Positions 13,393-61,200 of a DNA stretch of 64,000 bases are shown piece after piece. A model generated the notes under the pieces. It was not told the origin of the DNA. It ran no database searches and saw only the letters and a list, made by a program, of their open reading frames with translations. The stretch lies in the NCBI GenBank assembly GCA_963717145.1, contig OY970325.1, positions 4,512,001 to 4,576,000 of the forward strand, given 5' to 3'. Both the position numbers and the translations under genes were made by a program. Positions within the stretch are counted from its first letter, which is position 1. Each line of letters begins with the position of its first letter. Origin of the DNA: an uncultured Armatimonadetes bacterium (GTDB lineage Bacteria; Armatimonadota; UBA5829; DTJY01).

Positions 13393-13614
13393 GTAGGGGC
13401 GGTGCTTCTACGCCCGCCCGAGACGGGAGGCCGTTGAAGGCCTCCCCTACGGCACGAGCCGAGACGGGAGGCCGTTGAAGGCCTCCTCTACGGCACGAGC
13501 CGAGACGGGAGGCCGTTGAAGGCCTCCTCTACGGCACGAGCCGAGACGGGAGGCCGTTGAAGGCCTCCCCTACGGCACGAGCCGAGACGGGAGGCCGTTG
13601 AAGGCCTCCCCTAC
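13393..13614. repeat. Tandem array of five 41-bp REP-like units plus one inverted GTAG REP
   Basis: Unit CCGAGACGGGAGGCCGTTGAAGGCCTCC(C/T)CTACGGCACGAG, period 41 bp. Confidence 0.9.
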
Positions 13615-13646
13615 GGGGCAAGAGATGACTGGAAGGGAAAAGCAAC

Positions 13647-18470: not shown

Positions 18471-21017
18471 ATGAAACTCATCCCTTTGATCTTTGCACTG
18501 ACCATATCCGCCGTCGCGGCCCAGGATCTATCGAACGGCCACTTCCAACTTCATGCGCAGAATGGCTGGTTCGACGTGATGCGGTTCGATCCGTCCGGTA
18601 AGGGCAAGTATGGCGACAATCTGATCAAGGCACTGTACATCGGCGAGAAGCCGGATGGGAATCGCCGACTGGAGTCGCCTCCCACATCAGAGGGGAACAG
18701 CCTGTCCTTCCGCGGCCTTCCGGTCCGAAGCCCATACACGGTCGAGCACACCGACAGCTCGCATCCCTTCCAACTCACCCCCGGCACGACTCTCGGCGCC
18801 AAGTTCACGGTCAAGTCCGGGAAGATCACCCGCGCGGGCGGCAAGTTCCCGACCTGGGGCGAGCCCGATTCCGCCTGCACGCTCTCGATCTACCGCCTCC
18901 CGGACGGCGACATGGCGAAGAAGGAACTGGTCGTCGCCCGCAAGCTCACCGGCATCGCGGACAACAGCATGCGGTCGATCGACTTCGATCCGCAGCCCGC
19001 CGGGGTGTTCTACCTCGAGATGTCCGGGCACACGGGCAAGACGATCGGATGGTGGGGCGCGCAGAAGGACATGGACCCCTCGATGACCGCCATCATCGAC
19101 GGCAAGGAGGAGCCGGGATCGGACCTCGCGCTCACGTACTCCGGCTTCGATGAGGTCACCGGCGACTGGACCGTCACGCTGAACGCCGGCAACCTCAAGA
19201 GCACATTCAGCGGCGGAAATGTGCCACTCGTGATCGTAACGCCCTGGGAGAAGGCCGGCTACGATCTCTCCAAGTTCCCGTTCAGCCGGTTCTACACCGA
19301 TACCGGCCGACACGTGATCCCGCAGCAGTGGAAGCGCAGGCCGTCGAACGGCATCCAGCACGGCAACTGGGTCTATGCCATGGGGAAGAAGAACTACGAT
19401 CTGCGGTTCAACCTCAACGGACAGCATCTCTCCTGGGAGTTCACCGACGACGAAGCGCGGTGGAAGTTCGACCTCTCGGCTCTCGACATCGACCTCCTCC
19501 CGCACACGGATGCGCTCCCCAACTACTATCCCGTCTTCTACTCGTCCGACAAGAAGACCACCGATGTGGTGAACGAGTTCTACTACAGCCATGGTCTCAA
19601 CTTCGGGGTCGGTACTCCGCCGGACTGGAAGGAATGGCAGGCGCTCATCCTCGACTGGACCGACAGCCCGCAGACCGTGGAGCAGCGCGGTCACTTCACC
19701 GGTGTCCAGATGCGCGACGACGGGTACGTCCGATCCTGGGGCGCGGACGACGGCTGGCCGTTCCCCTACAAGGACGAGGACAAGGACGGCAAGAACGACT
19801 ACGATACGCGCCACTTCACGACCAACTCATGCATCATCCTCGGCGCATACCGATACTTCGTCTGGAAGCGGGATGTCGATTTCCTCAAGGAGATGATGCC
19901 GAAACTCCGTCTGATGAACGAGTTCAACCTGAACGACCTTCACGGCAGGGACGGCATCATCGTGATCGACGCCAAGGGTCACGAGGGCAGGCACGACGGC
20001 ATCGGGAGCAACTACTGGGACATCCTGCCGTTCGGGTACAAGGACGCCTTCTGCAACTCCTACTACTATGCGTCGCTCAAGGCGATGGGCGACCTCGAGC
20101 AGTTCTGTATCGACCAGGGGCTCGATCTCCCCGGCGAGAAGCGGACTCCCGCGTTCTACACTAAGCTCCGCGACCGGGTCCGGCTCTCATACAATCGGAC
20201 GTTCTGGGATGACGCCAAGGGCCGATACGTCGGCTGCGTCGATATCGACGGCGTGAAGCACGACTACGGCTTCACCTTCGTGAACGTCGAGGCGATGGCC
20301 TACGACCTTGCGGACAAGGCGCAGGTCGAGCGGGTCTACAAGTGGATGGAGACCGAGCCGACCTCTACCGGCAAGCCCGACACCTACTCCGCCTGGATCT
20401 TCGCCCCCCGCGCGAACACGATCCACAACCCTCCCAGGGAGGGAAATCCGAAATCCGAAATCCGAAATCCGAAATCAGCGCCCCCCTGGTGGTTCTTCGG
20501 CTGGAGCGGCACTCCCTATGGCGATCAGTGCCAGGACGGAGGCGCGATCCTCTACACGTCCGGCTACGACATCATCGCCCGTGCGAAGTATCTCGGCGCG
20601 GACAATGCGTACAAGCGGCTGACCGAGATGCTTGGCCGATACAATATGCCCGACCGCCTGATGGGCGGCAACCCGCTCGTCACCGGCGAGAACTCGCAGG
20701 GTGGGGGAAACGGCGCGGGCTCGGTCGGAGTCGAGGGCGAGTTCCCCGAGAGCGGCCTCGCACCGGCGTCGTACCTCTACGCGTTCCTCGGCATCGACGC
20801 GGATATCACTGGGATGAGGATCAAGCCGAACCTCCCGTCGAACGTCAAGTATGCCGGCGTCCGAAACCTCTCCTACGCCGGCACGAGGTACGACATCAAG
20901 GTCACCAAGGACTCGGTCGAGATCACTCCGCTCACCGTCGTGAACCCGACCACCATCAAGCGCAAGCTCAAGCCCGGCGAGACATTCCTCCTCGCCCCGG
21001 GGATGGTGAACAGATGA
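18471..21017 (+). CDS. Secreted glycoside hydrolase, probable (alpha/alpha)6-barrel
   Basis: Signal peptide; SNYWDILPFGYKDAFCNSYYY, YNRTFWDDAKGRY; adjacent to sugar ABC genes; family not determined. Confidence 0.7.
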   Translation: MKLIPLIFALTISAVAAQDLSNGHFQLHAQNGWFDVMRFDPSGKGKYGDNLIKALYIGEKPDGNRRLESPPTSEGNSLSFRGLPVRSPYTVEHTDSSHPFQLTPGTTLGAKFTVKSGKITRAGGKFPTWGEPDSACTLSIYRLPDGDMAKKELVVARKLTGIADNSMRSIDFDPQPAGVFYLEMSGHTGKTIGWWGAQKDMDPSMTAIIDGKEEPGSDLALTYSGFDEVTGDWTVTLNAGNLKSTFSGGNVPLVIVTPWEKAGYDLSKFPFSRFYTDTGRHVIPQQWKRRPSNGIQHGNWVYAMGKKNYDLRFNLNGQHLSWEFTDDEARWKFDLSALDIDLLPHTDALPNYYPVFYSSDKKTTDVVNEFYYSHGLNFGVGTPPDWKEWQALILDWTDSPQTVEQRGHFTGVQMRDDGYVRSWGADDGWPFPYKDEDKDGKNDYDTRHFTTNSCIILGAYRYFVWKRDVDFLKEMMPKLRLMNEFNLNDLHGRDGIIVIDAKGHEGRHDGIGSNYWDILPFGYKDAFCNSYYYASLKAMGDLEQFCIDQGLDLPGEKRTPAFYTKLRDRVRLSYNRTFWDDAKGRYVGCVDIDGVKHDYGFTFVNVEAMAYDLADKAQVERVYKWMETEPTSTGKPDTYSAWIFAPRANTIHNPPREGNPKSEIRNPKSAPPWWFFGWSGTPYGDQCQDGGAILYTSGYDIIARAKYLGADNAYKRLTEMLGRYNMPDRLMGGNPLVTGENSQGGGNGAGSVGVEGEFPESGLAPASYLYAFLGIDADITGMRIKPNLPSNVKYAGVRNLSYAGTRYDIKVTKDSVEITPLTVVNPTTIKRKLKPGETFLLAPGMVNR

Positions 21018-22672
21018 GAACGAAGGCCGTCATTCTGAGCGCAGTGAAGAATCTGGCCCTGCCGAGACGCCAGATTCTTCACTGCGTTCAGAATGACAGC
21101 CTCCCACGCCGGTTCTCCTCCGGATCCTTGGCGGTCTTGGCGTCTTGGCGGTTCCATAGGCCCCAGGCGACTGAAGTCACGGCAACAAGTGCACGAAGTG
21201 TCCCTGCGGACACTGGAGATCCCAGTCCACGCAGGTGGACTTCGTGCATTTGTTGCCGTGACTTCAGTCGCCTGGTGCTCTGGCTCATCCTGACCACTCT
21301 CCTGCTCCCCGGCTGCTCCCACCCGCCTAAGGACACCCGCGTCCACCTGCGATTCAGCATCCTCGGCGTGAAGCAGGAGACCGAACTCGCCAACGCCCTC
21401 GTGAGGGGCTTCGAGGCAAGCCACCCGGGCATCAAGATCGATGTCGAACCGGTCGCCGGGATGGGCTACGACATCAAGCTCATCATGCAGTCCGCGTCCG
21501 GCACGCTCCCCGACGTGCTCTTCCTCGCCGACTCGCTCGTCCCGACGTTCACCAAGTACAACGTCGTCCGCGACCTGAACGAGTTCATCAAGGACGACCC
21601 CGAGTTCCCGATCGACGACATATATCCCCAGATGCTCGCCACCGGGATGGACAAGCAGGGGCGCATCTTCCAACTCCCCCGCGAGCTTGGCGTCGTCGTG
21701 ATGTTCTACAACCGCACGCTCTTCCGCAAGGCCGGGCTGCCCGACCCGCCGCCGGACTGGACCCACGAGGACTTCCTCCGCATGGCCCGGAAGCTCACGA
21801 TCTACGAGGGCGACCGGATGACCCCACCCCAGCCCTCCCCGCAACGGAGAGGGAGTCCACCGAGCAACCCCCTCTCCGTTGCGGGGAGGGCTGGGGTGGG
21901 GTCATCCGGTCGCATCATCCAATACGGGTTCACCGCCGGATACACGTGGTGCGGGGTCTATGCGCCGTGGGTCGCATCGGAGGGCGGACGAGTGGTGACC
22001 AAGGACGGGAAGTGGGCCGCGTTCAGCTCGCCGGAATCGATCAAGGGGCTGAAGAACCTCATCGAACTCGTCACCGTGGAGAAGGTCGCGCTTCCGCCGA
22101 ACCGGAGCATCACGATCCCCGGCGTCGATCCGTTCGCGGCGGGGAAGATCGCCATGCAGCCGCAGGTCTTCCCGCAGGTGCCGCTCTACCGGGCGACGAT
22201 GAAGGACTTCGACTGGGACGTTCAGGTGATGCCCCGTGGTTCGGTGAGGCACGTCACGAACATGGGCGCGGCGGGATACGGCATGTCGACGAACACGAAA
22301 CACCCGAAGGAGGCCTGGGAGTTCCTGAAGTACATCGTCAGCCGCGAGGGCCAGACGATCCTCGCCACGTCCGGCAGCGGCATCCCGTGCCTGAAGTCGA
22401 TGGCGAACGACCCGGTCTGGCGCAGGCCCAATTCCGCTCCCCCATCAACCATGAACCATCAACCATCAACCATTCTGAACTATGATGCCTTCATCGACTC
22501 GGTGCAGATCGGCATGGGCTGGGACGACTTCCTCATCCTCACCCGCCCCGAGGTCCAGGACGCGGTCAACCAGGCCTTCGAGAAGTCGTTCCTCGGCAAG
22601 GCCACCATCGAGTCCGCCTTCAAAGAAGCCGACGCGAAGATCAACAAGGTGCTGCGGGAGACGAGCGACTAG
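21014..22672 (+). CDS. Sugar ABC transporter substrate-binding lipoprotein carrying in-frame repeat insertions
   Basis: ATG overlaps the upstream stop (ATGA); lipobox LLLPGC; LPDVLF, MFYNRTLFRKAGL, KHPKEAWEFLKY. Confidence 0.85.
   Translation: MRTKAVILSAVKNLALPRRQILHCVQNDSLPRRFSSGSLAVLASWRFHRPQATEVTATSARSVPADTGDPSPRRWTSCICCRDFSRLVLWLILTTLLLPGCSHPPKDTRVHLRFSILGVKQETELANALVRGFEASHPGIKIDVEPVAGMGYDIKLIMQSASGTLPDVLFLADSLVPTFTKYNVVRDLNEFIKDDPEFPIDDIYPQMLATGMDKQGRIFQLPRELGVVVMFYNRTLFRKAGLPDPPPDWTHEDFLRMARKLTIYEGDRMTPPQPSPQRRGSPPSNPLSVAGRAGVGSSGRIIQYGFTAGYTWCGVYAPWVASEGGRVVTKDGKWAAFSSPESIKGLKNLIELVTVEKVALPPNRSITIPGVDPFAAGKIAMQPQVFPQVPLYRATMKDFDWDVQVMPRGSVRHVTNMGAAGYGMSTNTKHPKEAWEFLKYIVSREGQTILATSGSGIPCLKSMANDPVWRRPNSAPPSTMNHQPSTILNYDAFIDSVQIGMGWDDFLILTRPEVQDAVNQAFEKSFLGKATIESAFKEADAKINKVLRETSD
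21029..21097. repeat. GTCATTCTGA-family palindrome (copy 1, in-frame in CDS)
   Basis: GTCATTCTGAGCGCAGTGAAGAATCT...AGATTCTTCACTGCGTTCAGAATGAC; other copies near 52509 and 56505. Confidence 0.85.
21164..21274. repeat. Palindromic element (in-frame in CDS)
   Basis: CAGGCGACTGAAGTCACGGCAACAAGTGCACGAAGT...ACTTCGTGCATTTGTTGCCGTGACTTCAGTCGCCTG. Confidence 0.85.
21811..21912. repeat. Palindromic element (in-frame, mid-CDS)
   Basis: GATGACCCCACCCCAGCCCTCCCCGCAACGGAGAGGG...CCCTCTCCGTTGCGGGGAGGGCTGGGGTGGGGTCATC. Confidence 0.85.
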
Positions 22673-25419: not shown

Positions 25420-25428
25420 GTGGACGAT

Positions 25429-26522
25429 ATGATGAAAAGGAGGAACACAAGCATGTTACGAAAAGCGATACATCTCATAGGGATCGTTCTCCTGCTGACC
25501 CTGCTGGCGTCCAGTTTGTCGGCACAAGTGCCGAGGACGATCTCCTACCAGGGCCGTCTGACGAACGACACCGGCACTCCACTGAACGCCACGTATTCCA
25601 TCACCTTCAGCCTCTACGATGTTGCCACCGGAGGCACGGCGCTGTGGTCTGAGACAAAGGATGTTGCTGTCTCCCAAGGGCTACTATCAACCGCTCTTGG
25701 AGACACCGCGCCTTTCGGAGACACGATCGCTTTCGACCGGCCATACTTCCTTGGGCTCAAGTTGGGATCCGGGGACGAGATGACTCCACGCCAGCCGTTT
25801 CAGAGTGCACCGTATGCATTGGCATTGCCGGGGGTAACCGTGGACGCCGATGGCAATGTCATATTCACTGGCAGCACTCCAAAGCATATCATCTGCGATG
25901 GCGGGAGTGTAGGGATCGGTACAACAGCCCCTCAGTCGCGATTGCACGTAGCAGGTGGCGATGTCAAAGTGCAGAATGGTGGCAATAATGCTGGAGAAGG
26001 GGGAGCCGTATTTCTCTGCGCCAATCCCGGCTATGCGCCAGGCGCAGGCATGCAGTTCGGCTTGGAGTTTGCGGGCGACGGCGTCGATTCTGGATTCTTG
26101 CGATTTCTTACAAGGTCATCACATACTTCGCCGCTGGTCGAGCGCGTGCGCATAACAAGCGGAGGCGATGTTGTAATCGGCAATGCCGTCTCCTGTGGGA
26201 CACTCACCCTCACTTCCTCCCGGCGCTTCAAGGATGATGTTAAGCCCATCGGGAACCCCTCGATACCATCAGCAAGCTCCAGGGTGTGAGCTACAACTGG
26301 GACGAGAAGCATGGCGGTAAGCCAGACATGGGATTCATTGCTGAGGACGTGGCGAAGGTGCTCCCGGAACTGGTGACCATGGAAGCAGACGGCAAGAACG
26401 CCGTCGGCATGGACTACACCCACCTCATGGCCCTCGCCATCGAAGGCATCAAGGCCCAGCAAGAGGAGATCACGGCGCTCAAGGCTCGCATCAACGTCCT
26501 TGAGCAGGCAGCGGCTAAGTAG
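25429..26522 (+). CDS. Secreted tail-fibre-like protein 2 (S74); apparent frameshift near 26257
   Basis: Same N and C domains as paralogues; AACCCCTCGATACC here versus AACCCCCTCGATACC in paralogue 3 (one C missing). Confidence 0.8.
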
Positions 26523-28085
26523 GTGGGTGTTATGATCAAAAGGAGAAACATAAGCGTGTTACGAAAAGCGATACATCTCATAGAGATCGTTCTCCTGCTG
26601 ACGCTGCTGGCGTCCTATGGTTGGGCACAAGTGCCGAGAACGATTTCCTACCAGGGCCGTCTCACGAACGACACCGGCGCTCCACTGGACGGCACATATT
26701 CGATCACCTTCAGCCTCTATGACGTTGCCACCGGCGGCACGGCACTGTGGTCTGAGATGAAGAGCATTTCCGTTTCCCAAGGGCTGTTCACAACGGCGCT
26801 GGGCAGCGGTACGGCTTTCGGAGAGGCTGTAGGTTTTGACACGCAGTATTTCCTGGGGGTGAAGGTCGGCACTGGTTCTGAAATGACCCCTCGCCAGGCG
26901 CTCCAAAGTGTACCCTATGCGCTCGGACTCCCAGGCATAACGGTGAGCCCTGCCGGTCCGATCACTGTGGACGTCGCCGGTACGGAGTACAGGTTTCGAC
27001 CTGCTTCCCTGGACTTAGCCATGGTGCCCGGTTCGACTCACTATCCGTATATCTCCTGGTATGATGGCGACGGCAGTCGTGGCGCCTACCTTGGTTGGGG
27101 CACTAAGAACAGCTCACTTGGGCTGACAATGAAGGACGGGGTGACCTTCGATATAGCTGGATCGATGGACATCAACGCCTCTGGAACGAGATACCTGTTT
27201 CATCCGGGCTGGATGACCCTTGCGAGTGCACCTGGCTCCACCCATTACCCGTTCATCGATTGGCTTGACACCGACGGCAATCGTGACGCATACCTGGGCT
27301 ATGGGACCATGAACAGCGTGCTGGAGCTCGAGATGAAGAGCGGCCTTCGGTTCCAGATCAATGGTCCTGTAAGCGTACTAGGTGGTGGCAACCTTGGCAT
27401 TGGAACCACTCAACTGACAGACAAGCTAGTCGTGGATCTAGGTGCCGGCCTCCCAGACGGGGGAATCACCATCAAGGGCACGAGCACTACAGCCGGCGAC
27501 ATCGGACTGAAGATAGCGAACACAGGCACTGGGGGGCGCAACTGGTATATAGATTCCACCAACAACTCAAGCGGCTACGGCGGCGGCAAACTTGCGTTCG
27601 TACAAGGCATTGGGAACGCCCCGTTGATGACTTTGGCCGATAACGGCTGTGTCGGAATCGGTACGGCATATCCAGGCAGGACACTGGATGTGAATGGAGA
27701 TGTCTACTTCCATAGCAACGTACTCGCGGGTAGCGTATCGTGTGGTGTCCTAACCCTCACTTCCTCCCGGCGCTTCAAGGATGATGTTGAGCCTATCGCG
27801 AACCCCCTCGATACCATCAGCAAGCTCCAGGGCGTGAGCTACAACTGGGACGAGGAGCACGGCGGCAAGCGAGATATGGGATTCATTGCCGAGGATGTGG
27901 CGAAGGTGCTCCCGGAACTGGTTACCATGGAAGCAGACGGTGAGAACGCGGTGGGCATGGATTACGCCCACCTGATCGCCCTCACCATCGAGGGCATCAA
28001 GGCCCAGCAGAAGGAGATCGAGGCGCTCAAGGCGGAAAATGCGGCCTTGGCAGGCGAGATTGAGAAACTGAGGACCAGCAGGTGA
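26523..28085 (+). CDS. Secreted tail-fibre-like protein 3 (S74)
   Basis: Same N/C domains, distinct middle; TSSRRFKDDV. Confidence 0.85.
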   Translation: MGVMIKRRNISVLRKAIHLIEIVLLLTLLASYGWAQVPRTISYQGRLTNDTGAPLDGTYSITFSLYDVATGGTALWSEMKSISVSQGLFTTALGSGTAFGEAVGFDTQYFLGVKVGTGSEMTPRQALQSVPYALGLPGITVSPAGPITVDVAGTEYRFRPASLDLAMVPGSTHYPYISWYDGDGSRGAYLGWGTKNSSLGLTMKDGVTFDIAGSMDINASGTRYLFHPGWMTLASAPGSTHYPFIDWLDTDGNRDAYLGYGTMNSVLELEMKSGLRFQINGPVSVLGGGNLGIGTTQLTDKLVVDLGAGLPDGGITIKGTSTTAGDIGLKIANTGTGGRNWYIDSTNNSSGYGGGKLAFVQGIGNAPLMTLADNGCVGIGTAYPGRTLDVNGDVYFHSNVLAGSVSCGVLTLTSSRRFKDDVEPIANPLDTISKLQGVSYNWDEEHGGKRDMGFIAEDVAKVLPELVTMEADGENAVGMDYAHLIALTIEGIKAQQKEIEALKAENAALAGEIEKLRTSR

Positions 28086-28138: not shown

Positions 28139-28984
28139 ATGGACAGATCATCCACTACGAACAGATATCGCTTTGTTGTGAAATATGGCTACATCCTGCT
28201 TGCTATCATGTTGGGAAGTAGGGCCGTTGCTGCCACTATGCCCTCGGGTTTCAACTACCCGACTAGTGCAACATGGACGGATAACTGGAATTGGCTGGCG
28301 GCGGGAGGTGGCGATACGCCAAGCTGTGACGACGTGCTAAATGAGTATCTCTGTGGCAAATACCACCTGGGAAAAGACATCGGTGCAGCAGCAGGCGCTG
28401 ATGTCTATGCGGTTGGCCCGGGACGTATCGTGCATGATGGTACTGGGACAAGTGACGTGGAACAGAAGTTCATGTGGGTGGAATTCGATCTTTCCAGCGG
28501 TGGTCACTTCTATGTTGTTTACGGCCACGTGAACAGAACCAAACCAGGGAATGACGTTGCGAAAGGTGATGTGATTGCCACCATTGCAAGTTGGCCCGGC
28601 AACAACCATCTGCATTTCGGCATCCGACCGGACGGCTATATCACAAGTGGATGGGGCCGTGGAAGTATACCAGCCGGATGGAATGGTAACAAGAATGATC
28701 TGAACAAGAACGGTTTTGTAGGCCCATGGGATTACCTATCAACGCACCAGCCCGCAGGTACTGGCTGTATACCCAACGCTAGCGACATCTGGCTCGACTT
28801 CGGATGGGGCGGGCCCTATACCGGCTGCCAGCAGTCACCCTTCAGCAGCCTGACCACGGCGATCGACGCTCTCAACTCCGGTGGCATCCTGCACATCAGG
28901 CCCGGGTCTACATCATGGACCGGGACGATCTCCAAGCCGATGACCCTGCAGGCAGAGAGTGGGACGGTTACCATCGGCAACTGA
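28139..28984 (+). CDS. Secreted M23-family metallopeptidase
   Basis: HLGKD (HxxxD), YGHV, HLHF motifs; signal peptide. Confidence 0.8.
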   Translation: MDRSSTTNRYRFVVKYGYILLAIMLGSRAVAATMPSGFNYPTSATWTDNWNWLAAGGGDTPSCDDVLNEYLCGKYHLGKDIGAAAGADVYAVGPGRIVHDGTGTSDVEQKFMWVEFDLSSGGHFYVVYGHVNRTKPGNDVAKGDVIATIASWPGNNHLHFGIRPDGYITSGWGRGSIPAGWNGNKNDLNKNGFVGPWDYLSTHQPAGTGCIPNASDIWLDFGWGGPYTGCQQSPFSSLTTAIDALNSGGILHIRPGSTSWTGTISKPMTLQAESGTVTIGN

Positions 28985-29089
28985 CCCCGAAACGGTAGGA
29001 CGGCGGCTGTCACGCGGTGTATTTCGTGGCATACCTCCCCCCGTCGGCTGCCGGTGGGAGGATTGCGGTGCGATGGGCCTGGGGAAGTA

Positions 29090-29278
29090 TGCTACGGGCA
29101 GACGGGATTGTACTACAGACGGTCCGTAGTACAATCCAGATCTTCCGTAGTATCGCACGGGTGGTCAGTAGTATGCCCCAGGGCCGCAGTAGTATCACCC
29201 GGTAGCCCTGTAGTATCATCCGGCCGCTCCGTAGTACACCTCACCCGTCGCGTAGTATGCAATACCCCTCCAGCAGTA
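29090..29278. repeat. 21-bp-period array of GTAGTA hexamers with variable 15-nt spacers
   Basis: GTAGTA at 29126, 29147, 29168, 29189, 29210, 29231, 29252; GCAGTA at 29273; inverted TACTAC at 29111 and TGCTAC at 29090. Confidence 0.9.
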
Positions 29279-29352
29279 CCCGTTTCCTGCCATAATGAGA
29301 ATGATTGCCGATTTCTGTCGCCGGGGAGACCGGCGGTGAGGAGATGGATGCC

Positions 29353-30021
29353 ATGTCCCGTGACTATATGCCGCATGCCGAGCACGAGTTGGCCGGGTGG
29401 GCGGACAAGTTCGTCGCCTTCGCCCAGGCGCATGCAGAAGATATCAGCCTGACCGAGGATGAGCTGACCGCACTTGTCAACGATCACGAGGCTTTCGATA
29501 GTGCCCGGAGCGAGTATGATGTCCTCGCTGCCCAGGCGCGTGGTGCGTGCAAGATGAAGAACCAAGCCCGCCGGAGTCTCGTCGACCGCATGAGGGAGAT
29601 CGCCATGCGCATCCAGACGAGCCCGGCGATCAACAATGGGGACCGGGCCTCCCTCGGGCTGTCGCTCGGTTTACCGAGGGAGCATGTTCCCCTCGAGTTC
29701 TCCGATGAGTTGCCGTATGCGGCGATCGACAGCTTCGGGCGGCTGAAGCACGTGCTCAGGATCACAAACAAGACCGAGAAGGGGTCGTCGAAGGCACGCC
29801 CGGGGAACGCGACCGGCTGCGAGGTCTGGGTGAAGGTCGGCGACTCGCCGTCGGGTCACGAAGAACTCAGGTATGTCGGAACGGCAACGGACGGATTGCG
29901 CGTCGTGGAGTTCTCGGCCGAGGACGGGGGGAAGAAGGCCTGGTACATGCTGCGGTGGGTCGGCCGCCGCTCGGCGGTGGGTTCCTGGAGTGGGACGTTC
30001 TCCGCGACGATCGCGGCGTAG
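29353..30021 (+). CDS. Uncharacterised protein, helical N-domain plus FnIII/Ig-like C-domain
   Basis: GAGGAG RBS; MSRDYMP...; C-terminal AWYMLRWVGRRSAVGSWS FnIII-like ending; no signal peptide. Confidence 0.75.
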   Translation: MSRDYMPHAEHELAGWADKFVAFAQAHAEDISLTEDELTALVNDHEAFDSARSEYDVLAAQARGACKMKNQARRSLVDRMREIAMRIQTSPAINNGDRASLGLSLGLPREHVPLEFSDELPYAAIDSFGRLKHVLRITNKTEKGSSKARPGNATGCEVWVKVGDSPSGHEELRYVGTATDGLRVVEFSAEDGGKKAWYMLRWVGRRSAVGSWSGTFSATIAA

Positions 30022-30098
30022 GAGGAAGGTTTCGGGTTATGGGTTGCAGGTTATGGGGAACCAATAACCTGCAACCTCGTGTCCGATTCCACGTCGGA

Positions 30099-30551
30099 TC
30101 ACTCGGCGGCGAAGAAGGCTTCCAGTTCCGTCTGAAGCCTGTCCAGCGTTTCCTCGCAGTGGAGCACGAGGTCGGACATCTTGCGCCATTTCACCTCGGT
30201 CGTGTACGCATGGCGGAACATGTGGCGGAAGTCCAGATAGTAGCGGAGTCGCAGGCGGAGGTCGTCGGAGATAACAGGCGGTCGGAGATCGGTAGGTTGC
30301 GCCATCAGCCCAAGCAGGGCGGCATGCGAAGACAACCCTGATGGAAGCGAATCGTCTATCTCCTCTGCGACACGCTTGAAGATATTCTCGATGCCTGTGT
30401 AGAACGAATGGAGCATGGCCGCCAGGGCGCTCATCTCCACGTAATCGGGTTCGGACGCTCGTACCTTTTCCAGGAGCGGGCGAAAGGAATCCAGCAACTC
30501 CCGAAGCATTGCGAGTTCGAGGTTGGCTCTCTTCTGCGTCTTAGGCCACAC
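30099..30551 (-). CDS. HEPN-domain RNase (HepT-like toxin)
   Basis: LHSFYTGIENIFKR; RHMFRH (RX4H) motif; GTG start overlapping the MNT stop. Confidence 0.8.
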   Translation of the reverse strand: MWPKTQKRANLELAMLRELLDSFRPLLEKVRASEPDYVEMSALAAMLHSFYTGIENIFKRVAEEIDDSLPSGLSSHAALLGLMAQPTDLRPPVISDDLRLRLRYYLDFRHMFRHAYTTEVKWRKMSDLVLHCEETLDRLQTELEAFFAAE

Positions 30552-30822
30552 GGACCAACTCCCCTTCCTCTTCGATAAAGCGCGTGAAGAGGTTGTTATC
30601 ATCCAGGTCCACGAGATCAAAGAGGCGCTGGATGGCATCGCCCACCTTGCTCATTGTGGGGAAGAACTTCTCAGGCGGAAGGCCACGAATCGCGATGTCT
30701 ATATCCGAGTCAGGCCTCATCTTGCCGTGGGCGGCCGATCCGAAGACGTAGACTTCGGTCGCTCCCTCCTCGCGGAGTATCCGTGCGGCTGTTTCGATGT
30801 CATTCTTGACGGCGTCATTCAT
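30541..30822 (-). CDS. Minimal nucleotidyltransferase (MNT) antitoxin
   Basis: VFGSAAHGKMRPDSDIDI (GS-X10-DxD). Confidence 0.85.
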   Translation of the reverse strand: MNDAVKNDIETAARILREEGATEVYVFGSAAHGKMRPDSDIDIAIRGLPPEKFFPTMSKVGDAIQRLFDLVDLDDNNLFTRFIEEEGELVRVA

Positions 30823-31069
30823 GGCAGATCGCTGCCTCCACTCGCTCGTTCAGATCAATCCCATCAACCTCAGGAATCTCGTGCCCTTTCCGCAGGCCGA
30901 CGAGCAGCCAACTCTCCAAGACCTCGCGGAGAGATTCCCTGCACTGCTCGAGGGTATCACTCTCAGCCCACACGCCCTGCAGACCTGGGATCTCCCCCCA
31001 GAAGGGCCCGTTCTCCATTATCTCGTAATGCGCGTGGCTCATTGCGCGCTCGATATATCGTGTCAGCAT
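30815..31069 (-). CDS. HicB-like antitoxin-family protein
   Basis: GEIPGLQGVWAESDTLEQCRESLREVL HicB-like signature. Confidence 0.75.
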   Translation of the reverse strand: MLTRYIERAMSHAHYEIMENGPFWGEIPGLQGVWAESDTLEQCRESLREVLESWLLVGLRKGHEIPEVDGIDLNERVEAAICHE

Positions 31070-47977: not shown

Positions 47978-48325
47978 ATGTTTGCGATCAACTTCTATTC
48001 CGAAGCGTACGCCGATATGCTGAGGTCCGGCCGAAAGACCGCCACGATCCGTCTCGGCGATAAGAGCGATAAGTACCGATCCGGGCAGTTGGTCTGGGTG
48101 ACGGTCGGCAGGCGATATGGCGCCCGGCAGAAGATCTTCACTGCCATCATAGACAGCGTCATCGTGAAATCCGCCTCTGACCTCACTCCGCGTGAGATCG
48201 AGAAGGAGAGCCCCGAACTGCGCCGTGTCGAAGAAGTCATCAACCTTCTCGGCCGCATCTACGACCGTCCTGTGGCGGCCGACGACCCCGTCACGATCGT
48301 ACAGTTCTCCCGCGTCATGGAGTGA
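47978..48325 (+). CDS. ASCH-domain protein
   Basis: SGRKTATIR (GxKxxTxR) motif; GAGGAG RBS. Confidence 0.8.
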   Translation: MFAINFYSEAYADMLRSGRKTATIRLGDKSDKYRSGQLVWVTVGRRYGARQKIFTAIIDSVIVKSASDLTPREIEKESPELRRVEEVINLLGRIYDRPVAADDPVTIVQFSRVME

Positions 48326-48411
48326 TCAGTCACTCGGTTTTCAGTCATCAGTCATCAGCTGTCAGTGGGAAGCTGCACTGATAACTGATGACTGACCACT
48401 GAAGACTGCCC

Positions 48412-48451
48412 AAAAAGAAACCCCGTCGGCGGAGCGTTCCGTCCGACGGGG
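48412..48451 (-). terminator. Rho-independent terminator (minus strand)
   Basis: CCCCGTCGG...CCGACGGGG followed by TTTCTTTTT on the minus strand. Confidence 0.7.
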
Positions 48452-48600
48452 CATCGGGAGGTTCAGGGGATCATCCGTATCCGGTGGCCTGGATCGGCAA
48501 CCCCCTGGATGGGACCATGTCCCTCTCGAAAAGGAGAAGAAGATGTTTGCGATCAGTTCTACTTCTCATACGGCGAACAGTCCTCGGAAGTTCCCGGCGG

Positions 48601-48629
48601 TTGACAAAAGGTCCTTGAGGTGGTATACT
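48601..48629 (+). promoter_or_regulatory. Sigma-70 promoter P1
   Basis: TTGACA-17-TATACT. Confidence 0.75.
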
Positions 48630-48654
48630 GCGAGCGTGCGATAGGCCGAATCTG

Positions 48655-48678
48655 ACAGGTGGAGACACCTGTTTTTTT
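48655..48678 (+). terminator. Rho-independent terminator between P1 and P2
   Basis: ACAGGTG-GAGA-CACCTGT followed by a T run. Confidence 0.7.
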
Positions 48679-48680
48679 GG

Positions 48681-48709
48681 TTGACACCAAGCTCGCAGCC
48701 TGATATACT
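48681..48709 (+). promoter_or_regulatory. Sigma-70 promoter P2 of the tRNA operon
   Basis: TTGACA-17-TATACT. Confidence 0.8.
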
Positions 48710-48741
48710 TTGGCTTGTGCTCAGCTTGGTGGCGCGAGAGC

Positions 48742-48817
48742 GGGCGAATAGCTCAGTTGGGAGAGCGCTTCCCTTACAAGGAAGATGTCGGGGGTTCAAG
48801 TCCCTCTTCGCCCACCA
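48742..48817 (+). tRNA. tRNA-Val(TAC)
   Basis: Cloverleaf, anticodon loop CTTACAA, GTTCAAG T-loop, CCA end. Confidence 0.95.
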
Positions 48818-48916
48818 GGGAAGCACAGGGAAGTACAAAGTACCTGAGTACAAAGAACAAAGACTCTGTCGGCGAGGGCCGGCTCGTCTTTGTACTTTGT
48901 ACTTAGTACTGCACGT

Positions 48917-48994
48917 GGGGGTGTAGCTCAGTTGGTTTAGAGCGCCTGCCTGTCACGTAGGAGGTCGCGGGTTCGAGTCCCGTCATCCCCGCCA
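48917..48994 (+). tRNA. tRNA-Asp(GTC)
   Basis: Cloverleaf, loop CTGTCAC, GTTCGAG, CCA end. Confidence 0.95.
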
Positions 48995-49094
48995 TGTTTC
49001 AAGTACAAAGATGGGAAGTACAGAGTACAAAGACAAACCGGCCCTCGGTCCGGGTCTTTGTACTTTGTACTTCCGTACTTTGTACTCCAAGTGG

Positions 49095-49170
49095 GCCGGG
49101 ATAGCTCAGCTGGTAGAGCAGTGGACTGAAAATCCACGTGTCCCCAGTTCAATTCTGGGTCCCGGCACCA
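49095..49170 (+). tRNA. tRNA-Phe(GAA)
   Basis: Cloverleaf, loop CTGAAAA, GTTCAAT, CCA end. Confidence 0.95.
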
Positions 49171-49199
49171 GTCAAACGCCGTGACCGGCATTCCTACGA

Positions 49200-49275
49200 G
49201 CCGACGTAGCTCAGCTGGTAGAGCAGCGCATTCGTAATGCGCAGGTCGTCAGTTCGAACCTGACCGTCGGCTCCA
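49200..49275 (+). tRNA. tRNA-Thr(CGT)
   Basis: Cloverleaf, loop TTCGTAA, GTTCGAA, CCA end. Confidence 0.95.
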
Positions 49276-58226: not shown

Positions 58227-61200
58227 ATGTCAATGTCATTACGCCAACTGCTGGCAGTAATATTCGCGCTTGTTCTTGTTACGCTCGGGCAGACGAACCC
58301 AGCCGCGGCCGCCAATCCGACGCCCGTGCAGTACTTCTATGTGCCGTTCCCCGAAGATCAGCTATTGGCGGGGCTTCAGGCAATAGAACTCGGTGGCTCG
58401 GAATCCGCGCCCGTCGACCCCGTCCAGACCTATATCTCAATCGCGGCTATCGCCAATGACACGATCGTCTACTACGATCAATGGGAGAACGGATACGATG
58501 CCGACATATCGAATCCGGTGAACCTGTACAACGTAGGCAACCTCGGTGGCACGCAGATCTGGGGCGATGCCGACGCTGCCAACGGGGCCCCTCCGGGCAT
58601 TCCCAGCGATGTAATCAACGCCGGGACGGTGATCATCCTGCAGAACGCCGTTACTACCACGAATCTCCTGGCCATTGACTTTGACGGTGGGGACAAGTTC
58701 GCGGCGACGAAGACGATTGCCGTGACCCGCGTTGGATACGCCGCAGGTCCGAACAGCCTGCTGGCGGGCGCCGTCGAAGTCTTCGATACCACCAACTGGG
58801 GGCTTGACCATCGTGCCCCGGTAGGTCAGGACATCCCTTCTGCCGACGATCACCAGATGTTTCAGTACACCGGTTTGGCGATTCTGGCGGGCGAACAGGG
58901 GGCCACCATACAGATCGATGCGGATGCGAACGGCGTCTTTGAGACGACGCAGACACTGACCGAGGGGCAGTCCTACTTTGTGAATGGCGGGGTCAATGTT
59001 GGGGGCAGGGTCCTGTCCGATGAGCTGGTTCAGGTGGACATGCTCACCGGCGACATCGCGTCCAACTACGAGAGCCGGGATTCCGAACTCCTGCCGATCA
59101 GCTTGTGGTTCAGTGACTATTACACGCCGGTCTCGACCTCAGCGACAGCCCAGAGCATCGCCGGGACCGCCACGACGGTCTGGCTCTACAACCCCGACGT
59201 CAGCGCCATCACCGTCCAGTATCAGACCCGGAACGGACTCGGCAACCTGACGACTACTCCCCTCACGGTTCCCGGCGGGCCTCAGGGCGGATACCTGTCG
59301 CAGGTCATACCTGACGGGTATGGGGCGCACTTCTCCACATCCGGAGCGAAGTTCTACCCGTTCTCGACCACCAACTCCACAGATACCGATACGGACGGCA
59401 ACCAGGCCTGGGACTGGGGGTTCACCCTCATTCCCAAGGATTCGTTGACGTCGCAGGCCTTGATCGGCCTCGGTATCGGCCGCGATCCCACCTCCGGCAG
59501 CAGTCCCAGTCAAGACGGCAATCCAATCTGGGTCACGCCCGTCGGCAACGGTGATACCCCGGTTACGGTCTATGTCGATTTTGATGCCAATCCCGCCACG
59601 GGCGCGCTCACCGATCCTAACGGCAACAAGTACGACCTCGCGCTGAGTCTCAAGGAACTGGAGCGGGCCAAGGTCTACGACACGACCGATGGTGACCAGA
59701 CCGGTACCCTGGTGTACGCCCTCGCGACCGGGGTCAAACTGGCGGTGGCCTGGGGACAGGACCCGCAGACGGCGAGCGCCGGCGCTCCGGGCCTGGACGT
59801 AGGCACGGGAGTACCTCCCGCGCCTGAGTTCTCCGCCGGCAAGAACGGCGTATTGTATACCGACACCGATGGCGATGGGTTTGTGAGCCCTGGTGACGTA
59901 CTGCTGTACACGATCGCCATCGACAACGTCAGCCGTGCCCCCGTGCCGGACGTCTTGCTCCAGGACACGGTGCCGGTAGACACGACTTACGTTCCCAACA
60001 CCACTTTCTTCACGAACGCCTCCAATGTTACGACCCAGATTCCCGACAACGGCGTGGGGACTGCATTCCCGCTGGACGGGAGCGGCATCATCCTGGATTC
60101 GATCACCGCACTTCCCGTTGGCGGCTCGTACGTGGTGACTTTCCGGGTCACGATCGATAGCTTCCCGAACCTGACTCCGGGCACGACGGAGATCATCAAC
60201 CTGGGCTCAGTCAGTGCCGTCGGCGAAACCACCGACCTCGAGGACCATACGCCACTGCACGGCCGCATCGGTGACTTCGTCTGGACCGACTCGAACGGCA
60301 ACGGTCTGCAGGATGTGAATGAGCCCGGCGTCAACGGTGTCACCGTCCGCCTCCTGGATGGCCTGGGCAATGTATTGGCCACGACCACGACGGCGAACAA
60401 CGGCATCGGCGATCCCGGCTACTACACATTCACCGGTCTCCTGGCGGGCTCGTACATCGTCGAGTTCGTTGCGCCCGGCGGCTACACTTTCACGGTGCAG
60501 AATGCCGATGCGCAGGGTCTCAACGGCGCCGTCAACTCCGACGCCAACATCACCACGGGCCGTACCGTCGTTTTCGCGTTGGCGGCGGGACAGACCAACA
60601 TGAACGCGGACGCCGGCTTCTTCATCCCGAATCCGTTGATTGACATTGTGAAGTCATTCGTCTGGACGACCGGGGATGGTGACCAAGTCGGCGACATTGT
60701 GACCTTCACCTTCACCGTGACGAACACCGGCAGTGTGACCCTGAACCCTGTCACGGTGACTGACGACCAGTTCGGTCCGATCACGCTGCTTGCGACGAGT
60801 CTCGCGCCCGGAGCGTTCACAACTGGTACCGCGACACTGACTCTGACCCAGGCCCTGCTGGACGCCGGCTCGCACACCAACATTGCCACTGCCCACGGAA
60901 CGCCGCCGATCGGGCCCGATGTGACCGACACGGACACCCGGACTGTCACCTTCACTGAGACTCCGTCCATTCACATTGCCAAGACATTCGAATGGACCAC
61001 CGGGAATGGCTCGCAGGTGGGCGATGTGGTGACCTTCACGTTCACAGTGACGAACACCGGCAATGTGACACTGAATCCTGTCACGGTGAACGATGACCAA
61101 CTGGGACCGATCACTCTACTCGCGACGAGTCTCGCGCCCGGGGCTTCCACGACGGGTACCGCAACATTGACTCTGACGCAGGCGCTGCTGGATGCGGGTT

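Follow-up and report, generated by a model that had tools for sequence, protein, structure and literature searches.

A 21-bp-phased repeat array and the helical rod–FnIII gene beside it form a conserved, widespread two-part module

The window analysed here is a stretch of 64,000 nucleotides from an uncultured Armatimonadetes bacterium, and it contains an array of short direct repeats, phased at 21 bp, directly upstream of a gene encoding a 222-amino-acid (aa) protein. Array and gene form a conserved, widespread and undescribed two-part module: the association of the two holds across at least eight phyla, the cores of the arrays are conserved within clades of the protein, and the modules sit in defence islands. 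Comparisons of sequence and models of structure put at about even the chance that the phased array is bound, as DNA, by the very protein encoded beside it and that this 222-aa protein autoregulates. It matches no family of Pfam (E≤0.01), NCBIfam, PHROGs or PADLOC, and full-text searches of the literature returned no account of the family or of the array layout; an earlier note on this DNA, made from the sequence alone, had recognised no described system with such a layout, and neither these searches nor the four family libraries gave anything to the contrary.

This is a large family: among 1.84 billion cluster representatives, a profile search returned 6297 members at E≤0.001 (3444 at E≤1e-10), with up to 25 copies per genome, none of it covered by an entry in those libraries, and the conspicuous non-coding, 21-bp-phased signature that accompanies it has apparently gone unnoticed so far. 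Should the protein read the array, the pairs would represent a novel DNA-binding architecture that comes with its own natural library of matched proteins and sites, useful as orthogonal parts and for studies of specificity evolution. Should the module serve in defence or addiction, it would be a new type of mechanism in defence islands.

The array and the gene at the window locus

The direct array (29126–29278, forward strand) is formed by seven exact GTAGTA hexamers at a strict 21-bp period, starting at 29126, 29147, 29168, 29189, 29210, 29231 and 29252, and by a degenerate eighth, GCAGTA, starting at 29273. Upstream of these lie an inverted copy, TACTAC (29111–29116), and, 21 bp further upstream, a degenerate inverted half-site, TGCTAC (29090–29095), with one mismatch to the reverse complement of GTAGTA. 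The earlier note had reported all these copies and a dyad, and the sequence and a pattern search confirmed the layout. The inverted copies do exist, but a better reading is a single conserved dyad operator, T[AT]CTAC-N9-GTAG[AT]A; the putative operator here is TACTAC-N9-GTAGTA at 29111–29131, its half-sites starting 15 bp apart, within a palindrome that spans 29105–29137 and has 12-bp arms (GGATTGTACTAC/GTAGTACAATCC). Two positions outside the hexamer had also been described as shared: the pyrimidine at unit position 7 is present in all eight units, whereas the C at position 12 is found in six of the eight.

The GTAGTA array is real and non-random. A pattern of two hexamers, with at most one mismatch, has nine matches in the window, eight of them in the array, and none in 100 dinucleotide-preserving shuffles; single GTAGTA hexamers number 26 in the window, compared with 5.84 ± 2.64 in the shuffles. 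A pattern of three hexamers has no second occurrence across the 5.37-Mb genome. Each unit combines a core of 6–7 bp with a spacer of 14–15 bp; the cores are AT-richer than the spacers, the spacers all differ, and the units agree at just 7–8 of 21 positions. An array of this kind is under-called by standard repeat finders, as is plain from the mere 2.5 copies that Tandem Repeats Finder counts here. The earlier note had suggested searching the spacers, and against the genome they gave no match of 14 nt or more, while matches of 11–13 nt occurred about as often as chance would give.

Both strands have an open frame across the array (29054–29452, forward, 132 aa; 29113–29565, reverse, 150 aa), and the public gene calls of some homologues (P0042, P0086) carry repeat extensions; both observations favour a translated heptad-repeat open reading frame (ORF), in either frame or on either strand. 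Such a reading is scarcely credible. The codon log-odds of the two frames are −32.0 and +3.0, respectively, against +48.3 for the real 222-aa gene, and in the open forward frame all 14 valine codons would be GTA, a codon that accounts for 10.6% of valine codons in the long ORFs of the genome (chance about 2e-14). When the period of an array can be divided by three and its unit has one frame free of stops, that frame stays open trivially, and the arrays of some paralogues have periods of 22 (four), 24 (one) or 43 bp (two), 22 not being a multiple of three. The N-terminal extensions in some public gene calls are translated arrays. The earlier note had argued against a protein heptad repeat, and on this point it was right.

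The array also matches no known RNA. A scan of the window at Rfam gathering thresholds returned four tRNAs only, all far from the array. As RNA, the array region folds slightly better than its shuffles (z −2.36 forward, −1.86 reverse), most of which is supplied by the dyad, whose arms pair as RNA; no unit hairpin was found in the window's own array, and a terminator scan of 28800–30200 reported no terminator-like site. The ‘mini repeat-spacer’ non-coding RNA that the earlier note had offered as an option thus finds no support in the Rfam scan, the hairpin test, the spacer search or the comparison of terminators across loci.

Directly downstream, as had been noted before, come a −10-like box and a ribosome-binding site (RBS). 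The box, CCATAAT (29290–29296), belongs to a promoter-like element on the forward strand, CTCCAG-N17-CCATAAT (29268–29296, a pattern match), whose upstream hexamer (29268–29273) abuts and overlaps the eighth array unit. The composite pattern, defined as C[CG]A[TC]AAT with CT..AG 14–22 bp before it, occurs 69 times in the genome: 13 times at paralogue loci, 32 times within genes, 13 times before other co-directional genes, and 11 times in other intergenic positions. The element has no match to the sigma-70 consensus. The RBS, GAGGAG (29338–29343, forward strand), lies 9 nt before the ATG (29353) of the 222-aa gene (29353–30021, forward strand), one of 25 paralogues, the product of which is predicted to begin with a helical rod and to end, after a linker, in an FnIII-like sandwich. 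Just before the RBS, the RNA fold contains a small hairpin, CGCCGG-GGAGA-CCGGCG (29319–29335, forward strand), which has no T-run and is not called a terminator by the scan; and beyond the gene, between convergent gene ends, is a perfect 13-bp inverted repeat, GGTTGCAGGTTAT/ATAACCTGCAACC (30042–30076), again without a T-run and not reported by the terminator scan. A different hairpin, with the loop TAATCTG.A.C.CAA on a CGGC...GCCG stem, is conserved directly after the promoter-like box in one sub-clade of the family, at positions 460070, 2876900, 5282016 and, less clearly, 1436734 of this genome (loci L027, L042, L050 and L035); in one locus a T-run stands behind it, and it may be a leader RNA element.

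Arrays beside paralogues and homologues

The genome encodes exactly 25 members of the family (an iterated profile search was stable at this number), all of 215–227 aa and all with good ribosome-binding sites. When 400 bp upstream of each were read, most were found to have a periodic array of their own, with a unit of their own. By autocorrelation of 5-mers over 700 bp upstream, the dominant lag is 21, 42 or 63 bp at 16 of the 25 loci, 41 bp at one (with 21 second), 22, 44 or 66 bp at four, 43 bp at two and 24 bp at one, and is not clear at the remaining one; a periodic array at about 21–22 bp, or at a multiple of it, is thus present in 23 of the 25 upstream regions. Across the whole genome, Tandem Repeats Finder arrays of at least three copies number 43 at period 21, against one at period 20 and nine at period 22, and most intergenic arrays of period 21, 22, 42 or 43 sit 45–620 bp upstream of a paralogue. 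Some are orphans, with a period of 21, 22 or 42 bp and lying upstream of unrelated genes. Three of these (895087–895273, 4716134–4716387 and 546374–546491) have a core in common with a distant paralogue-linked array; CTTACAC-N4-GTGTAG units, for example, are found both upstream of the paralogue at 1,407,605 and at 895,087–895,187. Others match none of the paralogue-linked arrays (1161107–1161280, 1189080–1189244, 1285229–1358 and 4826975–4827139), and in all about five to seven intergenic arrays of 21-bp period lack both a neighbouring paralogue and a core match.

The association extends well beyond this genome. Arrays at 21 or 42 bp precede homologues in four related genomes (G001, G005, G006 and G010). 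A scan with a 6-row alignment, one genome per species, gave 195 relatives, and the best 80 loci, which were kept, come from Acidobacteriota, Planctomycetota, Cyanobacteria, Armatimonadota, Ignavibacteria, Bacteroidota, Dehalococcoidia and Alphaproteobacteria. Within 800 bp upstream, Tandem Repeats Finder detected an array in 52 of the 80, nearly all of period 21, 42 or 63; the array-bearing loci belong to Acidobacteriota, Planctomycetota, Cyanobacteria, Armatimonadota, Ignavibacteria, Dehalococcoidia and Alphaproteobacteria, and for the Tannerella locus the same program gave no upstream array. Autocorrelation, which is more sensitive, was applied to 110 loci whose upstream sequence ran to 300 bp or more (L009 and L055 being one sequence). 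A count of at least 10 was reached by 96 of the 110, with the lag at 21, 42 or 63 in 78, at 22 or 44 in five and at 43 in four; among 1000 random 700-bp genome windows, 133 reached this count, 20 of them at 21, 42 or 63 (78/110 against 20/1000, Fisher p 5e-74). The earlier note had proposed looking for 21-bp periodicity in the flanks of homologues and had named the lack of it as its own refutation; that refutation fails, because the homologues do carry flanking 21-bp arrays.

The distribution of the family is patchy within the phylum (28 of 301 sampled genomes), and the orthologues P0002–P0004 are about 68–77% identical to the window protein; metagenome scans aimed at close orthologues, in which the contigs of these three were expected, returned no relative. 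Searches with tblastn found no homologue in 72,556 plasmid records (two family members as queries), nor in phage records with two of three family-member queries; these were single-sequence queries, of limited reach. No neighbouring ORF family is conserved across 86 external loci, where the largest cluster (nine loci) consists of ORFs reading through similar arrays, and the 25 own loci have no neighbour in common, the paralogue gene usually being the last in a co-directional run. Since no neighbouring gene is conserved, the array and the gene make up the whole module.

The core of the array follows the clade of the protein. In a tree of 111 family members, array units are common to sister groups. 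The closest relatives of the window protein are those of locus L008 (43% identity, another genus), the paralogue at 5,252,497 (41%) and L014 (35%). The dyad T[AT]CTAC-N9-GTAG[AT]A is present once in the window (29111–29131, then seven direct GTAGTA), five times, 42 bp apart, at L008, and once at the 5,252,497 paralogue; L014 has two forward and two reverse half-sites, no exact dyad, and a variant dyad in its flank. The 107 other loci have a mean of 0.48 such half-sites, with a single exception, L092, which has eight. In another, large clade, GGAGCGGATGAC..ACTCC-like units are kept at about 57% protein identity, and many array cores of the family are palindromic. The covariation of motif and protein, which the earlier note had proposed to test, is borne out by the family tree and by the dyad survey. 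Within a genome, paralogue pairs of 50–90% identity (n=9) have units that agree at about 10 of 21 positions, no more than background, whereas pairs from different genomes, at 75–90% identity (n=17), agree at a mean of 13.9 of 21; on these small numbers, the sequence comparison fits selection for insulation between modules of one genome.

Many arrays have units at least 90% alike and are thus prone to slip, and the family is multi-copy and diverse, as would suit a contingency locus in which slippage of the repeat number switches or tunes the expression of a variable family. Such a locus is very improbable here: the window's units, with 7–8 of 21 positions shared, make slippage unlikely; a change in length by 21 bp preserves the helical face and would not switch promoter geometry; near-identical pairs are alike in copy number (9.4 and 9.3 for L093/L101, 7.7 and 7.4 for L010/L011); and a period of 21–22 bp in unrelated sequences across phyla would be left unexplained.

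The modules sit in defence islands. PADLOC matches at E≤1e-10 were found at 16 of the 25 paralogue loci, compared with five of 25 random loci (Fisher p 0.0037), and for 26 of 98 neighbouring proteins at the former compared with seven of 96 at the latter. The neighbours include Type I and Type III restriction-modification, Septu PtuA/PtuB, PDC-M36, PDC-S06, a KAP NTPase and TIR proteins; at the window's own locus there is no PADLOC match at this threshold. One paralogue with its array, for example, lies directly downstream of, and co-directional with, very strong matches to candidate defence genes, one to PDC-M36A (E 7e-229) and two to PDC-M36B (L046:3333–5542, about 4,627,600–4,629,800 of this genome).

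Tandem repeats of other lengths are also found in this genome. Periods of 7 and 8 are very common (268 and 163 arrays, respectively, of at least three copies), and in the window repeats of period 7 lie at 20443–20476 (GAAATCC, 4.9 copies) and 22442–22473 (CCATCAA, 4.6 copies), with further tandem repeats at 48321–49086. At 13418–13616 a 41-bp unit with a GC-rich hairpin inside is repeated 4.9 times at 98% identity; units of 41–44 bp like this one recur at many sites of the genome and look like a dispersed REP-like family.

The protein and how it may read its array

The AlphaFold2 model of the 222-aa protein (28-row alignment) has a pLDDT of 88.8 and comprises helices at residues 10–26 and 35–89, a low-confidence linker at about 101–118 and, finally, a C-terminal beta sandwich. 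The best Foldseek matches of the modelled C-terminal domain in the PDB are FnIII domains (top E 9.3e-5; 14 matches with E≤0.001), and the domain is predicted on these grounds to be an FnIII-type beta sandwich; the Pfam fn3 family stayed below the scan's reporting limit of E≤0.01. Modelled alone, the N-terminal domain reaches a pLDDT of 95.5, and the best match of its fold in the PDB has an E of 2.7. In many matches from other genomes of the phylum (G184, G154, G085, G202 and others; ORFs of 208–364 aa), only this N-terminal helical domain is covered (profile positions 1 to about 120), so that the rod seems to be combined with other C-terminal domains as well. The idea that the conserved ‘...ATIAA’ at the C-terminus might be a tag for degradation was rejected, because wider homologues end in TN, TG, GG or TV.

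The oligomer prediction that the earlier note had suggested gave an antiparallel homodimer, with a score of 0.70 against a best control of 0.00 (three controls). That score was reached by 20 of 30 proteins solved as one-chain pairs and by one of 23 solved as single chains, counts that hold roughly here, where an own alignment was used. The runs agreed in at least 91% of contacts, partner pLDDT was at least 80, and the predicted interface covers residues 5–103, pairing residue 62 with 62 and 76 with 44. A helix rises 1.5 Å per residue; the 55-residue helix would thus measure about 80 Å, and 21 bp of B-DNA about 71 Å. By these models the rod could serve as a ruler, and we infer from the near-equal lengths that the two FnIII heads of a dimer may reach neighbouring cores.

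These elements can be joined into a mechanism. The N-terminal rod, including the 55-residue helix, would form a symmetric antiparallel dimer, and the two C-terminal FnIII-like domains, carried on flexible linkers, would read a short clade-specific motif, which at the window locus would be GTAG(T/A)A, present once as a dyad and then as seven or eight direct repeats. As 21 bp correspond to two helical turns, all sites lie on one face of the DNA, along which dimers may load side by side or in a daisy chain. It is within the −35-like part of the gene's promoter-like element that the array ends, so that occupancy of the array would set the expression of the gene itself. With a motif of its own for each paralogue, the 25 modules would be mutually insulated, and the few orphan arrays with a matching core could be extra targets in trans. 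The earlier note had suggested a scaffold for a cooperatively binding protein, possibly the downstream one; the arrays at homologues and the clade-linked motif support this, and we infer from them, for binding itself, that the 222-aa protein rather than another factor would occupy the array and that the FnIII domains would act as its reading heads. Candidate roles for the module are those of an island-specific regulator or silencer, or of a DNA-tethered defence or addiction module.

Several points weigh against binding and autoregulation by the protein. Proteins of the family are acidic (their median pI is 5.7 over the full length and 5.0 over the N-terminal domain; in a second clade the C-terminal domain is acidic too), which is unusual for a protein that coats DNA; in the clade of the window protein the C-terminal domain is basic (pI 8–9). 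Neither domain resembles a known DNA-binding fold, the N-terminal one lacking any close match and the C-terminal one matching only generic FnIII. A symmetric dimer is no obvious match for direct repeats, and the core GTA-N-TAC is here only quasi-palindromic. The assignment of the promoter is a pattern match only. About 8–10 intergenic 21-bp arrays have no adjacent paralogue, and most of them match no paralogue-linked array. Finally, as a counter-example, the L104 and L108 proteins are 92% identical, yet their units agree at just 12 of 21 positions and may have no more than a short CGGAYG-like core in common; and co-inheritance of neighbouring DNA alone could produce much of the match between clade and core.

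Acidity, the lack of a known DNA-binding fold and the existence of arrays without a paralogue would all suit arrays that are bound by some other factor, or that act as architectural DNA, with phased, bendable cores, AT-richer amid GC-rich DNA, curving the region upstream of the promoter; AT-richer cores and a two-turn period would suit phased bending as well. The neighbouring protein would then have a job unrelated to DNA, for example as a structural protein or adaptor through its FnIII domain. We consider this unlikely. Curvature leaves unexplained an invariant hexamer amid fully diverged spacers, and also a half-site that is kept upstream of relatives about 40% identical in other genera; another factor would have to be some 25 factors, one for each of about 25 different cores in one genome, and only the paralogues scale one-to-one with the arrays, no other neighbour being conserved.

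The arrangement in which one gene has a tandem array directly upstream of it, with repeats specific to each paralogue, distribution over many phyla and a defence context, is also that found in Type III toxin-antitoxin loci (ToxIN, CptIN and TenpIN; PMC3401426). By analogy, the array could be an RNA module of this kind, or an RNA sponge, in which transcribed 21-nt units neutralise or titrate the protein, with a role in addiction or abortive infection. Location in defence islands is in keeping with this, as is one clade in which the array follows the promoter-like box and precedes the RBS; and a helix of at least 4 bp is possible in 32 of 46 consensus units, with G:T outnumbering A:C at stem positions of the sense strand (51 to 36). 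Such an RNA module is nonetheless distinctly unlikely. The excess of G:T is not significant (p 0.13), 14 of the 46 arrays can form no helix, and the window's array has no unit hairpin. A sign that the unit acts at DNA level is that, in sister clades, the same unit runs forward in 11 loci and reverse-complemented in eight, relative to the gene; and the array is upstream of the promoter-like box in the window's clade and downstream of it in the other (both by pattern matches). A terminator-like hairpin between array and gene, scarce overall (five of 46 loci in sense, two in antisense), is absent from the window. The unit of 21 nt falls outside the 31–62 nt listed for the known families in Table 2 of PMC3401426, no Rfam family matches the array, no RNA structure signal was found, and the protein, a predicted rod with an FnIII domain rather than a ToxN-like endoribonuclease, gave no match to ToxN, CptN or TenpN, or to any other nuclease family, in the scans of the family libraries. 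Membership of Type III systems was rejected on unit length, terminator, toxin family and orientation.

A broader proposal follows from DNA binding by the 222-aa protein, and it is put forward tentatively, as possible though rather doubtful: a new class of sequence-specific DNA-recognition modules, in which a dimeric ruler would set the 21-bp register, FnIII heads would read an evolvable core, and each protein would have one array, which would act as a DNA tether or ‘DNA antitoxin’. Genomes would then contain dozens of mutually insulated protein–array pairs, spread over many phyla. From the location in defence islands it may be argued that the array tethers a sensor or effector, which would stay inactive until phage attack disturbs the chromosome; if true, the module would count as an immune or addiction system of a new kind, with a single gene.

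Known systems and the surroundings of the locus

Iterons of plasmid-type replicons are arrays of five to eight direct repeats of about 17–22 bp, phased at about 21–22 bp, beside a Rep gene and with an inverted-repeat operator near the rep promoter. The present module resembles them in its direct repeats of about 21 bp at two helical turns, beside the gene of a putative binder, and in an inverted-repeat operator near the promoter. It differs in having 25 chromosomal copies, no match to a Rep family, an unrelated predicted fold and no plasmid homologue in the 72,556 records (two queries); membership was rejected on protein family, replicon and copy number. In ParR-parC loci and omega-type heptads, arrays of short repeats, both direct and inverted, precede the operon and act as a cooperative, one-face binding platform and as an autoregulatory operator, with a period of 7–11 bp, a partner NTPase in the operon and a ribbon-helix-helix fold. 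The combination of direct and inverted repeats upstream of the gene of a putative binder is common to both; the period of 21 bp, a predicted fold other than ribbon-helix-helix, the many chromosomal copies in defence islands and the lack of a partner NTPase or of any conserved neighbour at 25 own and 86 external loci are not, and a ParR/parC-type partition locus was ruled out by the missing NTPase.

CRISPR arrays have repeats of about 23 nt or more, spacers of similar length, and cas genes. Such an array was rejected for the window locus on its short cores and spacers, on the absence of a cas-like neighbour in the Pfam and PADLOC scans, and on spacers with no genomic match of 14 nt or more. BstA is reportedly paired with a cognate anti-BstA DNA element at its own locus. 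As a defence protein (so described in PMC8585504), it provides a precedent for the combination of a defence protein with a cognate DNA element in cis; it differs in belonging to an unrelated family and in that no phased 21-bp array is known to have been described for it. The REP elements tagged with GTAG, as characterised in PMC3733652, are palindromic units of 20–40 bp in high copy; GTAGTA+N15 units are non-palindromic, apart from the single dyad, and the array pattern is unique in the genome, so these elements were rejected as well.

At the window locus, the 222-aa gene is preceded by tail-fibre-like genes (Peptidase_S74) and an M23 peptidase gene, and the GC content dips to 0.55–0.58 over 23–29 kb of the window. 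Convergent with the gene, at 30099–31069 (reverse strand), are those of a HepT-like_2 toxin of 179 aa, an MNT-type nucleotidyltransferase of 93 aa and a UPF0150/HicB-like protein of 84 aa. The gene at 26523–28085 encodes a 520-aa tail-fibre-like protein with a Peptidase_S74 chaperone domain; the two adjacent ORFs before it (25420–26522; 289 and 78 aa) resemble its N- and C-terminal parts and appear to be a split or shortened tandem paralogue. Elsewhere in the window, four tRNA genes are interleaved with heptamer repeats at 48742–49272, and at 60632–62585 a 330-bp unit is repeated 5.9 times at 79% identity, presumably as the repeated domain of a large surface protein gene.

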